A stretch of 63,974 nucleotides of DNA, filler included, from Collodictyon triciliatum (lineage: Eukaryota): the NCBI GenBank assembly GCA_043381765.1. It is 12 parts of 12 records of this genome, joined end to end, with 100 filler letters (N's around TTAATTAATTAA, not from the genome) between each part and the next. Parts side by side here need not be neighbours in the genome. Positions count along the whole stretch, not along the records: positions 43,492 to 49,083 come from JBHJMP010005089.1; 11 more parts are not named here. One strand, 5' to 3'. Positions 44,084 to 47,000 of the stretch are shown one piece after another. The notes beneath the pieces are model-generated. The model made no database searches, was not told the DNA's origin, and was given only the letters and a program-made list of their open reading frames with translations. Each line of letters begins with the position of its first letter. The stretch's first letter is position 1. The position numbers were made by a program, and so were the translations under genes.

Positions 44084-47000
44084 TTATTGGGAAAGCTCCA
44101 ACTGCGCATTTATCGATTGCTTTCTGGCACTCTTTGTACGGGGATGGTCTGCACCATAAACAGCCTCAAAAATCGTGGTGGCTTTTTGATATAAGTCCAG
44201 AGCATTCTCGTATTTTTCCTGGTCCATGTGCATATTTCCAATAATGAAGTAAGTGTCCCCAACATTAGGTTGGATTTCCCCAAACACTTTCAGTCGAATT
44301 TCAAGTGACATATAGTAGTAGTCCAGGGCTTTGTCACTCCTACGAAATAATTACGTGAATAATAATACATATTGATAAATATCAAAATAAAACATACTTT
44401 CCAAGGTCGTAGTAAACGTTTCCAATTCCCATGTATGATGTTGCAACATCGGGGTGCATTTCTCCAAACACTTTGAGTCGAATTTCAAGCGATTTATATA
44501 TGTATTCCATCGATTGCTGATTCCTACAAAGTCATAAAGCAAACGGCATTATATTTCAATAAATACATGGTCAAAATAAAACATACTTTCCAAGGTCGTA
44601 GTAGGCGTTTCCCATCCCCATATATGATGTTGCAACATCAGGGTGCATTTCCCCAAACACTTTCAGTCGAATTTCAAGTGACATATAGTAATATTCCAGG
44701 GCTTTGTCACTCCTACGAAATAATTAAGCGAACACGAATACATATTGATAAATACATGGTCAAGATAAATCATACTTTCCAAGGTCGTAGTAAACGTTTC
44801 CAATCCCCATATATGATGATGCAACACTAGGGTGCATTTCTCCAAACACTTTCAGTCGAATTTCCAGTGATTTGTGATGGTATTCCAGGGCTTTATCATA
44901 TCTATTAAATAATAGGAAATGAAAATGTATATCAGTAAAAATTAGATAAAAATAATCCATACTTTCCAAGGTCGTAGTAAACGTTTCCAATCCCCATATA
45001 TGATGATGCAACACTAGGGTGCATTTCTCCAAACACTTTCAGTTGAATTTCAAGTGATTTCTGGTAGTGCTCCAGAGCTTCTAGATATCTATTAAATAAT
45101 GATACGTTAATAAAGGGATAGACAAAAAATAAATAAATACACAATCAAATAAAACATACTTTCCAAGGTCACTGTAAACATTTCCCAGAGAGATCAGATT
45201 TTTGCTTTTCGAACCTAATAAAGATGAACCAAAATCAGCAACGCACATAAAAATCCAAAACAAATGACCAAACCCTCATCCGTCTCAACAGAAATGCGGC
45301 GCTTAAGAATCGGAATCAAAAAAGAATTCTCTTGAATTTGTTGAAAATAATCGACCAGCGCAGAGCCAGCAGGATTCAGTTGCTGTTGTACATATCATTA
45401 AAATAAATTCATCATCGATACATGCAATTTAATTTTATCACCTTGGCCAACTCATAATAGACAACTTTGTGGTCATATCCGTTCTTATTTAGCACTCTCC
45501 AGCATTCATAAAACTCGAAGCGATAATTGTCATCCAGCATACTTGTGACAACCTAAAAACTATATTACAACACATGTCATAAAAATAAGAATAAAATCCA
45601 CCATTTAACCTTTTCATTCTTCATAAAGTCCACCAGTGTATCGTATTCACTCGAAATCCTCAGATTGTGGCATATTTCGGCAACAACATTCTCGTCTTCA
45701 GTGCCAGAACCGTATTCACCCAGCAGCCACAATACATATTCACGTGCTTCACTTTTTGTGTATGCTTCATCCTTAAAGTATCGCTCTTTGATGGATTGTG
45801 TCAGCAGCTGGTCAGAGAACGCGTATCTAAGATAAGATATTGTGATTAGCCATTATGACCACTAAAAAATTATCAATAACAGTATCACCTCCCATTCCTC
45901 ACAAAGAGCGAATCCAGCAAGGCAAAAAGAAATGATTTCCTAAAAATAAAAAATACGATTTATCAAAAGTGACACATATGAATCATATGACAGTAATCGA
46001 TATACCAGGTCGCATGGTTGATTTGCATATGAGTTTGGTTAAATCGATGTTCCATGTATTTGTCCAGCTCGTTTTCATCAAGGCCAATGCGCGACACATT
46101 AAGGACGCTGATAGACAGACGAACAATATCTTTTCCTAAAATGACACATAAATCAATAAAACTGTATTAAAAGAACACTTTGGATGTATCACAAGACCAT
46201 ATTTCTTTTCCCAGCGACTCATCACAAGGTCGAATAAATTGATAACTCCATTTTTATCCAGCATTTCACGAAGTTCGGAGTCAACTTTTTCATACACTCC
46301 AAACACACGGAGCTCATCCAGCACAATGCGCAGGTAGAGTGGATGCCCTGTTCTCGTATTCATCATTCAATATCTGTAATTTGTAAAACATAAAGTGATT
46401 AAATCGAATGATTAATTACACTCACCAGTATCGTCACGTTTACTGAGTATCATTTCCATCTGTTTCTCGTTCAAGGTCTTGTTGTAGCGCTTGAAGAACG
46501 AGGTGGCTGCTTGTCTGATTCCAACATCGTCAAGCTTCGACACAGGAATGACATCTAACCTTGCTGACCTGGCAACCTATTCAAAAGCGACTGGGTTAAT
46601 CCAAATGTATTATATCCTCGAAAAAATTTACAAACATTGCATGATTCGTGGGTGTCGATGGTTGATGCAACGATGGAGATATTCTTTGGTGTCTTTTTGG
46701 GAAGCCATTCAAGGCGGTGGACGTGCTTGTTTTTCTCTGAATTAACCAACTGATTGAATGCATCGATGACCAGGACAACCTGCTTTTTCCTGTATTGATA
46801 GGTTTTTCAGATAGTATTTATGTTAATTAAAAAACTGCAACTTAAAAGTACTCGTTTCTTGATGCAAGTTTGAGTATGTGGTCTAGTCCCTTCTTCAAAA
46901 CTTCCTTCCCTGCAACAAGACATAAATCAAAATAAATACTTATTTAAAATATTTTGAATGAAATGGATATCAAAATTAATAAATGAATTATCTTTTTGAC

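Follow-up and report, generated by a model that had tools for sequence, protein, structure and literature searches.

The DNA analysed here (63,974 nucleotides in full, referred to as the window) contains a gene with an NLR-like product, the C-terminal part of which is encoded by a tandem run of closely similar exons. An earlier note on this DNA read the array as a candidate diversifying immune-receptor system. The question raised by the locus is whether these exons serve to generate sensor diversity or reflect exon duplication and homogenisation in a gene family with an inherited exon layout. The lineage is placed near the base of Amorphea. Our literature search found no NLR study for this lineage and no paper joining Diphylleia rotans with NACHT. 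For fungal NLRs, concerted evolution of highly conserved repeat arrays has been documented (PMC4986451). DUF4062 is described as an NADase that adjoins NACHT in TEP1, NWD1, NWD2 and NPHP3; in the part of that study considered here, human NPHP3, NWD1 and NWD2 were exposed to NAD+ after purification, and activity is reported for TEP1 alone (bioRxiv 10.64898/2026.05.01.722283).

Results

Anatomy and domains of the gene

Employing RNA-contig joints and a frame-keeping search for splice sites, we modelled an intact gene of 22 exons on the minus strand (CDS 48712 to 44084), whose product of 1027 amino acids combines a DUF4062 (TIR-like NADase) domain with a NACHT P-loop NTPase and six TPRs of 42 residues each.

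44084..48712, minus strand: whole DUF4062-NACHT-TPR CDS; 22 exons, 21 GT..AG introns of 57-180 nt, reading frame intact
47826..48712, minus strand: exons 1-4, N-terminal Gly2 (MGxxxS) start and DUF4062 / TIR-like NADase domain (Pfam)
48046..48048, minus strand: Glu171 (GAG), last codon of exon 3, candidate catalytic Glu in the motif S-V-x-x-Y-E
47152..47429, minus strand: exon 6, NACHT Walker A G-A-E-S-G-I-G-K-S (Pfam NPHP3_N E 0.0045, NACHT E 0.024, single exon)
46636..46789, minus strand: exon 9, Walker B region V-V-L-V-I-D-A (Pfam NACHT profile positions 79-129, E 0.02)

The gene is rich in introns throughout (21 introns, mean exon size 140 nt), so that an exon of 126 nt is of ordinary size in it. 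Ten of the 15 joints listed in RNA contigs of three sequencing runs carry CT..AC ends, which are GT..AG on the minus strand.

Pfam recognised DUF4062 on exon 3 at 25.0 bits (E 2.2e-5), the cut-off being 24.7, and on exon 1 at E 0.023; compared with the PDB, exon 3 alone gave a best match of only E 0.28, to TEP1. DUF4062 scored E 1e-9 to 2e-13 in the colinear homologues. The D. rotans homologues P0004 and P0024 matched the structure of the TEP1 TIR-like domain (11gz_A) at E 3e-18 and 3.7e-14, respectively. Glu171 lies within S-V-P-G-Y-E and lines up by motif with S-V-T-E-M-E of TEP1 chain 11gz_A, where the HMMER alignment is shifted. Judged by this motif and the numbering of the chain, it is a candidate equivalent of TEP1 E1008.

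Single-exon matches to NPHP3_N and NACHT were weak (E 0.0045 and 0.02-0.024), while homologues reached 1e-8 for NACHT and 5e-8 for nSTAND1. NB-ARC (PF00931) found no match in the exons of the window or in nine scanned homologues; NACHT, NPHP3_N and nSTAND1 matched instead. Among these nine D. rotans proteins, Pfam identified DUF4062 in four, NACHT, NPHP3_N, nSTAND1 or AAA_16 in seven, and TPR_12 in seven. These data establish the anatomy of the gene and its homology: as the note had proposed, the scaffold is of the NPHP3/TEP1 type, an NLR-like STAND protein of the DUF4062-NACHT group that includes NPHP3, TEP1 and NWD. By its domains, the protein may have NADase activity, sense ligands through its TPRs and play some role in defence.

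Exons of the TPR array

The C-terminal array occupies the last six exons of the gene and the introns between them.

45160..45214, minus strand: exon 17, 55 nt, helix A of TPR 1; its 3' end is the same ..D-L-G-K AA| split codon
44963..45088, minus strand: TPR cassette exon E1, 126 nt
44776..44901, minus strand: TPR cassette exon E2, 126 nt; 5' edge is a splice junction in RNA contigs of runs X3 and X6
44587..44712, minus strand: TPR cassette exon E3, 126 nt
44398..44523, minus strand: TPR cassette exon E4, 126 nt
44340..45159, minus strand: span of TPR introns I0-I4 (45089-45159, 44902-44962, 44713-44775, 44524-44586, 44340-44397), 58-71 nt, all starting GTATG
44084..44339, minus strand: terminal exon; first ~65 nt E3-like, then diverged helix A, last TPR, capping helix and stop codon

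E1-E4 (exons 18-21) are each preceded by AG, followed by GTATG and entered after the second base of a Lys codon (AA|R), so the four 126-nt exons of phase 2-2 described in the note stand in size, splice sites and split codon. With the same split codon at every joint, gain or loss of any unit keeps the frame, as had also been claimed. The equation of one exon with one TPR is right in length (42 residues each) and wrong in register: a cassette exon covers helix B of repeat n and then, beyond the linker, helix A of repeat n+1, with the exon boundary between positions 16 and 17 of the Pfam TPR_1 profile. The terminal exon matches TPR_12 at E 7e-12. No TPR-like sequence was found inside the TPR introns, which at 58-71 nt have no room for inactivated TPR exons. 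Tandem Repeats Finder reported a period of 189 bp (4.4 copies, 79% matches) and a higher-scoring one of 376 bp (83%).

A 262-nt DNA contig of run X1 is identical to 44552-44813 (E3-intron-E2), with zero differences. RNA contigs of X3 and X6 stop or switch precisely where E2 has its 5' edge (44901); GT..AG, reading frame and homology place the remaining edges of the TPR exons. An X6 contig has a loose end at 45155 that runs on into a different TPR exon, and an X3 contig spans 44005-44309 with five differences. The RNA contigs were aligned at 90% likeness and are therefore taken to come from relatives or paralogues. Each sequencing run contains at most 0.12 of the sampled words of the stretch. 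For this very gene, splicing of E1-E4 is a prediction of the gene model.

Conserved and variable parts of the units

E1-E4 differ pairwise at 12-24 of 126 nt and are 78-85% identical in protein sequence; identity at a lag of 42 residues is 83% (70/84). The differences are unevenly spread. The last ~95 nt are 89-100% identical between units, in agreement with the claim of a core near-invariant at the DNA level, and the first ~30 nt and the introns are diverged. In all six pairs of E1-E4, differences concentrate in the first 28-34 nt (max-chi2 permutation p 0.0005-0.0065); the peptides quoted in the note for the variable first ~10 residues are correct. Clearly, divergence among the units is block-wise.

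The TPR introns are homologous, as had been inferred from their gtatg starts, yet have drifted much further apart than the exon cores: between pairs, identity amounts to 62-81% (19-38% of aligned columns differ), compared to a mean of 57% (maximum 65%) with 13 other introns of the gene and 54 +/- 4% with shuffles. The units are mosaic and have acceptors in common in the way described: E3 and the terminal exon agree at 32 of the 34 nt with which they begin and also in the final 14 nt of the intron before them, and E1 and E2 share an acceptor and all of their last 46 nt (46/46, in an identical run of 81 nt). The identical E1/E2 tract ends at the exon edge, 5 nt into the intron, an end not predicted by purely DNA-level conversion between tandem units.

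Among E1-E4, pS falls from 0.71 in codons 1-10 to 0.26 in codons 11-24 and 0.13 in codons 25-41. The variable block has pN 0.35, pS 0.71 and pN/pS 0.49, with synonymous divergence near saturation; it shows no dN>dS. Based on Pfam profile positions and a published description (PMC5642895), we mapped the block to positions 17-26 of TPR_1, in helix B (42PR positions 22-31 by our mapping), while helix A is almost invariant (4 of 17 positions differ among E1-E4). As helix B is described as lining the convex face in 42-residue TPRs (PMC5642895), the variable residues would lie on the convex face and not in the TPR groove onto which the note proposed to map them.

Relatives in Diphylleia rotans and elsewhere

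The nearest relatives are all from D. rotans, consistent with a protist host: at least 15 transcript clusters at 40-44% identity (including a search with P0026). The window gene is colinear with D. rotans proteins over 938-1009 aligned residues at 30-44% identity. HMMER comparison of the P-loop exon (exon 6) with 1.84e9 representatives gave 17 matches, 12 of them D. rotans transcripts and none an animal protein; a protein homology search with the same exon found no longer proteins at E <= 1e-3.

Intron positions in D. rotans were deduced from transcript break points, not from a genome. Ten of 13 ORF or homology breaks (5/8 and 5/5) fall within two residues of an exon boundary of the window gene (binomial P 2.7e-8 at a 10% chance each), the 13 being chosen from fetched isoform sets and truncated ORFs with the N-terminal truncations P0005, P0010 and P0091 left out. 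Eight of the ten coinciding breaks lie at TPR A/B-turn boundaries, and one further break lies exactly 42 columns past the last intron. These shared intron positions argue that the exon-per-TPR layout is ancestral to the family, and it appears to be inherited within it and not special to the window gene. The homogenised array, on the other hand, is specific to the window gene in comparison with 11 D. rotans proteins, whose lag-42 identity is 19-46%.

Alternative splicing of the cassettes, invoked in the note as a possible source of diversity, left no trace in the transcripts compared. Among six D. rotans genes with several isoforms, none showed a unit-sized internal deletion, the length differences being intron-retention tails or truncations, and no exon-skipping joint occurs among the 15 of 24 joints listed in RNA contigs. 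An 84-residue (2 x 42) difference between P0016 and P0092 was considered as two skipped units and rejected, as it is a different C-terminal tail starting just after the A/B turn.

Contigs from relatives show unit orders unlike that of the window: an E3-like exon whose 3' end differs is joined by splicing to a following E2-like exon, and E0 is spliced to an exon of the 'SDKALE' type. In one X1 DNA contig, likeness to E2 is limited to one side of 44821. Up to nine distinct X3 contigs overlap one position of the gene in one RNA run. Within the window, blastn with the gene found a single paralogous fragment, with no homologous sequence after it.

5295..5605, plus strand: truncated paralogous copy of exon 1, intron 1 and the start of exon 2; 83% identity, cut by a masked N run

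The truncated copy and the X3 contigs count for turnover of the family. In metagenome contigs, the exact pattern of conserved core, 55-61 nt and exon end with donor had no match; with the five units aligned against viral contigs, 168 pattern matches yielded none confirmed. Fourteen metagenome-contig loci were rejected as relatives: they are 43-59% identical, uninterrupted 126-nt-period arrays in one frame, that is, generic TPR_12 proteins.

Discussion

Origin of the array

We consider it probable that the array arose by exon duplication and gene conversion in an NLR-like NADase-STAND family with an ancestral exon-per-TPR layout, the units having been recently homogenised in this gene. The gene would belong, as an intact copy, to a family of NLR-like STAND NTPases that has expanded in its lineage. 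From the N-terminus, its product would consist of a DUF4062 (TIR-like NADase) effector, then a NACHT switch and a helical region, with a sensor array of 42-residue TPRs at the C-terminus. In this family, the array would be built of 126-nt exon units, with short phase-2 introns in the turn between helix A and helix B, a layout probably shared through common ancestry with the distant D. rotans paralogues. In the window gene, four to five units would have been recently amplified and partly homogenised via unequal crossover and short-tract gene conversion; this would explain the near-identity in DNA of helix A and the linker, with older, diverged sequence retained in the introns and where helix B begins. 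As the phase is symmetric, units could be gained, lost or exchanged without a change of reading frame, which would account for the mosaic units and the differing unit orders in relatives. Conversion is the presumed homogenising process: with five units only, it is not separable from strong selection at synonymous sites (splicing enhancers, RNA structure) or raised mutation in the 5' block.

The view of the note, a receptor system dedicated to diversification, seems unlikely to us: cassette exons would be shuffled between or within loci or alternatively spliced, yielding many TPR sensor variants under positive selection, as has been proposed for the Ectocarpus NB-ARC-TPR/ROCO genes and fungal NLRs. 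It would suit the symmetric 126-nt exons and mosaic units, the other unit orders and chimeric units in relatives' contigs (E3-like to E2; E0 to 'SDKALE'; X1 at 44821), the many paralogous contigs and the gene fragment in the window, the effector-NOD-repeat architecture with a TIR-like NADase, and the high internal repeat identity, a feature of a fifth of fungal NLR TPR arrays as given in PMC4986451. However, pN/pS is 0.49 in a block with near-saturated synonymous divergence, the block lies on the convex helix B while helix A varies at 4 of 17 positions, none of the six multi-isoform D. rotans genes has a unit-sized deletion, the 15 of 24 joints listed include no skipping, the D. rotans arrays are not homogenised, and contigs from repeats can be chimeric. 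The diversity-generating system of the earlier note thus has the mosaic units and the alternative cassette orders of relatives on its side and finds no support for positive selection or exon skipping in the sequences compared; programmed or selected diversification of receptors by the array is a hypothesis, and an immune role of the gene may be suspected from its architecture. More speculative, and doubtful at present, is the idea that a deep-branching lineage of heterotrophic flagellates (Diphyllatea/CRuMs or a close relative) possesses an expanded TIR-like-NADase NLR family in which interchangeable one-repeat exons are exchanged between loci and are homogenised or reshuffled so fast that each gene, perhaps each strain, has its own sensor. 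Cassette-based receptor diversification would then have been invented independently of brown algae and fungi, coupled to an NAD-depleting effector.

That the gene is an ordinary housekeeping NPHP3 orthologue, encoding a ciliary protein, with a recent tandem exon duplication and no family dynamics is very improbable. Partial Pfam matches to NPHP3_N and TPR_NPHP3, DUF4062 beside NACHT as in NPHP3, NWD and TEP1, and an organism that is presumably a flagellate relative would agree with it; TPR_NPHP3, however, scored 17-33 bits against a cut-off of 100, and none of the 17 HMMER matches is an animal protein. In place of the single-copy orthologue that the note had named as its counter-case, there are at least 15 D. 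rotans clusters, at just 30-44% identity to the gene, up to nine contigs over one site in one RNA run and a truncated paralogue in the same window. We give hardly any credence to an artefact of assembly or amplification, by which a single exon would have given rise to all the tandem units as mis-assembled or chimeric copies. Tandem repeats do invite mis-assembly, and microsatellites are numerous in the window, but E1-E4 differ at 12-24 of 126 nt, their introns differ in 19-38% of the columns aligned, neither the reading frame nor any splice site is broken, and a contig from another DNA run equals E3-intron-E2 exactly, a weak point as that run could be the source sample.

Returning to exon duplication and conversion as the favoured explanation, an exon-per-repeat array and highly conserved, concertedly evolving repeats here occur together on a third scaffold, composed of a TIR-like NADase, NACHT and TPRs. 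If cassette exchange is true, the locus would offer a tractable third case in which to ask whether modular exon architecture evolves repeatedly in sensors facing variable ligands, and would connect the recently described DUF4062 NADase effector with a eukaryotic family that is expanded and evolves fast. Should there be no such exchange, the locus nonetheless gives a clean case of homogenisation confined to exons within a tandem exon array.

Comparison with known systems

Both precedents cited in the note, from Ectocarpus and from fungi, are as claimed in the portions of the two papers considered here (PMC3341825, PMC4986451). Ectocarpus NB-ARC-TPR genes (Zambounis et al. 2012, PMC3341825) likewise have consecutive 126-nt exons of 42 residues (four in the window, plus the E3-like start of the terminal exon), frame-preserving exon lengths and a STAND NTPase before the array in a multigene family; there, too, TPR exons give a faint signal of positive selection (5 of 245 lineages). 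They belong to another eukaryotic supergroup, carry NB-ARC instead of a NACHT/NPHP3_N-type domain, have no DUF4062 reported in the portions of that paper considered, and contain long introns with inactivated TPR exons, the mark that shuffling leaves, whereas the TPR introns of the window gene are 58-71 nt and hold none.

Fungal NLRs with highly conserved TPR, ANK or WD repeats (Dyrka et al. 2014, PMC4986451) resemble the window gene in combining a NOD with a 42-residue TPR array of high internal identity, for which concerted evolution has been proposed, and in TPRs of the kinesin-light-chain type (PDB matches 4y6c and 4y6w in this analysis). With 78-85% identity between units and 83% at lag 42, the window gene is just under the fungal criterion of >85% over >=100 aa. 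In the fungal genes, as described there, the variable sites are scattered codons on the concave face of otherwise identical repeats; in the window gene, variation takes the form of a single unbroken block, on helix B and in the intron, and affects synonymous and non-synonymous sites alike, and every repeat is a separate exon.

TEP1, NWD1, NWD2, NPHP3 and bacterial DUF4062 defence proteins share with the window gene DUF4062 directly before a NACHT P-loop NTPase and C-terminal repeats, as far as the account in bioRxiv 10.64898/2026.05.01.722283 goes. The motif S-V-T-x-x-E with its conserved Glu has a candidate counterpart in S-V-P-G-Y-E, and homologues of the family match the TEP1 structure 11gz_A. 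TEP1 and NWD proteins, however, have WD40 repeats in place of TPRs, the animal DUF4062-NACHT genes occur in one to a few copies, and exon-per-repeat structure or homogenised repeats are not known in TEP1, NWD or NPHP3. Closest of all are the D. rotans transcripts (EukProt EP00002, P0002-P0031). Known from transcripts alone, they differ in mutually diverged TPR units (19-46% at lag 42) and in the additional WD40 of P0002 and RRM of P0028, but they have the same domain order, are colinear over ~1000 residues and show ORF breaks at the same exon boundaries.

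Gene model and effector domain

Based on the spliced joints of RNA contigs and a frame-keeping search of GT..AG sites, we modelled the DUF4062-NACHT-TPR gene. Contigs of three RNA runs were placed on the window at 90% likeness (no public run shares more than 12% of the window's words), and 10 of the 15 listed spliced joints showed CT..AC ends. The intact model has a coding sequence from 48712 to 44084 on the minus strand, comprises 22 exons separated by 21 introns (57-180 nt), and encodes 1027 amino acids with six TPRs in total. In Pfam scans of single exons, exon 3 matched DUF4062 (E 2.2e-5), the Walker A and Walker B exons matched NPHP3_N/NACHT weakly, and matches to TPR_12/TPR_10 were strong. 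The protein has the NLR layout, effector-NOD-repeat.

In the available text of 10.64898/2026.05.01.722283, DUF4062 is described as a TIR-like NADase adjoining NACHT in human TEP1, NWD1, NWD2 and NPHP3, and E1008 is named as the catalytic residue of TEP1. Two transcript proteins of Diphylleia rotans, P0004 (E 3e-18) and P0024 (E 3.7e-14), matched the structure of the TEP1 TIR-like domain (11gz_A). Where TEP1 has the motif S-V-T-E-M-E, D. rotans has S-V-T-x-Y-E and the window gene S-V-P-G-Y-E, in which the Glu is residue 171, the final codon of exon 3; Glu171 is the candidate catalytic equivalent of TEP1 E1008. These structure matches and the motif, with DUF4062 adjoining NACHT, support the NPHP3/TEP1-type scaffold proposed in the earlier note.

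Other features of the window were as follows.
17616-19899, plus strand: long ORF encoding a WD40 propeller together with FG-GAP repeats and Cys-rich repeats of the Ephrin_rec_like type
22780-27822, minus strand: three internally repetitive ORFs, all very long (577, 610 and 344 aa) and rich in Ser/Glu/Asp
49321-49836, plus strand: ORF matching C3HC4 RING weakly (E 3e-4), transcribed divergently to the NLR-like gene and about 600 bp from its 5' end
52657-53850 and 62800-63237, plus strand: two poly(ADP-ribose) glycohydrolase-type genes (PARG_cat_microb, E 8e-23; PARG_cat_C, E 2e-13)

Both PARG-type genes lie within 20 kb (window coordinates) of the gene with the putative NAD-cleaving domain, which may be a coincidence or an ADP-ribose functional neighbourhood. 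The 610-aa ORF, the one scanned of the three, had no Pfam match. Microsatellites are abundant, among them (ATA)n (43635-43735) and a 9-mer array (49184-49282), which flank the gene. N runs occur as paired 44-nt runs at a regular spacing of about 5.7 kb and as a single 543-nt run (35653-36195).

The TPR cassettes

The part of the gene encoding the TPRs (45214-44084) is arranged as follows.
45160-45214, minus strand: exon 17, supplying the first helix A
44963-45088, minus strand: E1
44776-44901, minus strand: E2
44587-44712, minus strand: E3
44398-44523, minus strand: E4
44084-44339, minus strand: terminal exon, with the last helix B, one further TPR and a cap

Direct reading and a script confirmed that E1-E4 are each exactly 126 nt and in the same phase, as had been claimed; an AG acceptor lies directly before each of them and GTATG directly after, and a Lys codon is split at each cassette start, with AA ending the preceding exon and the third base opening the next. 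Because the mean exon length of the gene is 140 nt, 126-nt exons are ordinary in size; what is distinctive is that they share length, phase and sequence. By the TPR_1 profile, the canonical repeat begins at the A of V-A-S-S-Y, which places the exon boundary between TPR positions 16 and 17, so that an exon takes in helix B of one repeat, then the linker, then helix A of the repeat that follows. The proposed one TPR per exon therefore holds for length but not for register.

Tandem Repeats Finder reported a 189-bp period (4.4 copies) over the array, and a 376-bp period scored better. E3 and the terminal exon are identical at 32 of their first 34 nt, and the closing 14 nt of the intron before each are also the same; E1 and E2 share their last 46 nt (46/46) and an 81-nt identical run. 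The mosaic structure described earlier was thus upheld. In all six pairs among E1-E4, differences cluster in the first 28-34 nt (permutation p 0.0005-0.0065). The TPR introns, likewise claimed to be homologous, are 62-81% identical to one another, compared to a mean of 57% (maximum 65%) with 13 of the gene's remaining introns, and shuffles gave 54 +/- 4%; the exon cores are far less diverged than these introns. The underlying observation is real and was well described.

A family with an ancestral exon-per-TPR layout

Employing the 92-aa P-loop exon as a HMMER query against 1.84 billion representatives, we found only 17 proteins at E <= 1e-3: 12 D. rotans EukProt transcripts, 3 short fragments (one 90% identical) and 2 ENA proteins with scattered weak matches. 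Among nine of these scanned with Pfam, DUF4062 was found in four, NACHT/NPHP3_N/nSTAND1/AAA_16 in seven and TPR_12 in seven. A word-based search with the D. rotans protein P0026 brought the D. rotans family to at least 15 clusters and retrieved more distant DUF4062-STAND-TPR/WD40 proteins (21-28% identity) from metagenomes, bacteria and Dictyostelium. Five D. rotans proteins align colinearly with the window protein over 938-1009 residues (30-44% identity), which points to a diphyllatean, or something closely related, as the probable source organism. An RRM domain precedes DUF4062 in the D. rotans protein P0028, and P0002, a 2619-aa family member, additionally carries WD40. The WD40 part of the ORF at 17616-19899 resembles the P0002 tail; no NACHT was found upstream of this ORF within the window. 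A literature search found no publication treating Diphylleia rotans and NACHT together.

D. rotans isoforms and truncated ORFs stop, or change to unrelated tails, at positions matching exon boundaries of the window gene in the alignment. Five of eight isoform break points fell within 1 residue of a boundary, one further break point lay exactly 42 columns beyond the last TPR intron, and all five additional ORF or homology ends fell within 2 residues. Combined, 10 of 13 break points, hand-picked from the retrieved proteins with N-terminal truncations left out, were at boundaries against a chance of about 10% each (P 2.7e-8), 8 of the 10 at the TPR A/B turn; the two misses were P0025, 14 columns off, and P0013/P0027, at the far C-terminus. 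These shared break points indicate that the exon-per-TPR layout was inherited across paralogues only about 40% identical; it is ancestral in the family rather than peculiar to the window gene.

Short non-homologous tails directly follow the TPR A/B-turn codon in P0016, P0009 and P0028, as in many family transcripts. Several D. rotans tails read Y-A-F-F... or Y-E-L-Q..., as would be expected from a retained intron starting with GTATG. Such products would be sensors with fewer TPRs, and may be pre-mRNA noise or real isoforms. Exon skipping, the form of alternative splicing that had been suggested, was not borne out: the isoform sets of six D. rotans genes contained no in-frame deletion the size of one unit, and none of the 15 joints listed (nine more exist) was an exon-skipping joint.

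Homogenisation and possible exchange of units

At lag 42, the window protein shows identity at 70/84 positions versus 16-39/84 in 11 D. rotans proteins. The homogenised array is what sets the window gene apart, and it is recent in this copy. P0033, a DUF4062-NACHT-TPR protein from a 66-kb NCBI contig, has 85% identity at lag 42, which shows that highly homogenised 42-residue arrays exist on this scaffold without introns too.

Nei-Gojobori counts for E1-E4, summed over all six pairs
Codons; pS; pN; pN/pS
1-10 (variable block); 0.71; 0.35; 0.49
11-24; 0.26; 0.016; 0.06
25-41 (helix A); 0.13; 0.076; 0.58

The silent-site divergence of the variable block equals or exceeds that of the introns, and the remaining exon is conserved at silent sites as well. 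Selection on synonymous sites may be an alternative source of this silent-site pattern. In five units, a number too small for formal testing, the signature is one of tracts of differing age, as left by gene conversion or a recent unequal crossover restricted to the exon core, and is unlike that of positive selection acting on a repeat that is young throughout. The variable block is located on helix B, and E1-E4 differ at only 4 of 17 helix A positions. The concave groove of 42-residue TPRs is formed by helices A, and their convex face by helices B (available text of PMC5642895); in TPRs of fungal NLRs, the sites that vary or are under selection lie on the concave side (available text of PMC4986451). 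With a pN/pS of 0.49, silent sites diverged as well and a location on the convex helix B, the variable block gives no support to the sensor diversification proposed in the earlier note.

Read contigs indicated further unit arrangements. A contig of RNA run X3 carried a unit matching E3 over its 5' part, with another 34-nt 3' end, followed by E2 from base one, the reverse of the window order (E2 then E3). Contigs of RNA run X6 led from the 5' edge of E2 into a further helix A and from exon 17 into a 'SDKALE'-type exon, and a contig of DNA run X1 resembled E2 on one side of 44821 but not on the other. Up to 9 X3 contigs overlapped a single position of the NACHT part. The window also contains a gene fragment.
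5295-5605, plus strand: truncated 311-bp copy, 83% identical, covering exon 1 and intron 1 and reaching into the first part of exon 2, on the strand opposite to the gene

This copy, a truncated paralogue or pseudogene fragment, lies 39 kb away in window coordinates, retains an open frame in exon 1, has GTAAC as its donor, like the gene, and ends at a masked N run, beyond which nothing homologous to the gene was found. The contig findings, which come from relatives rather than the window gene and in repeats may be chimeric, and the fragment are consistent with a multi-copy family in which units are exchanged and genes arise and are lost.

Comparison with known systems

As read from its sequence, the gene encodes an NLR-like protein, putatively NADase-NACHT-TPR, and belongs to a protist family whose exon-per-TPR architecture is ancestral. 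The diversifying immune function proposed for it is possible, yet gained no support from the tests run. The repeats of fungal NLRs sit within one exon, in contrast to those of the window gene. As far as the available text of PMC4986451 goes, the fungal NLRs resemble the window gene in high internal identity and proposed concerted evolution but differ in the location of the variation. In Ectocarpus, the available text of Zambounis et al. (PMC3341825) reports that 13 of 24 NB-ARC genes have a TPR domain of 42-aa exons (124 exons of 126 nt), with inactivated exons within introns and weak positive selection (5 of 245 lineages). On that account, the window gene shares exon size and logic with the Ectocarpus NB-ARC-TPR genes and differs from them in NOD type, effector, intron size, freedom from dead exons, and lineage.
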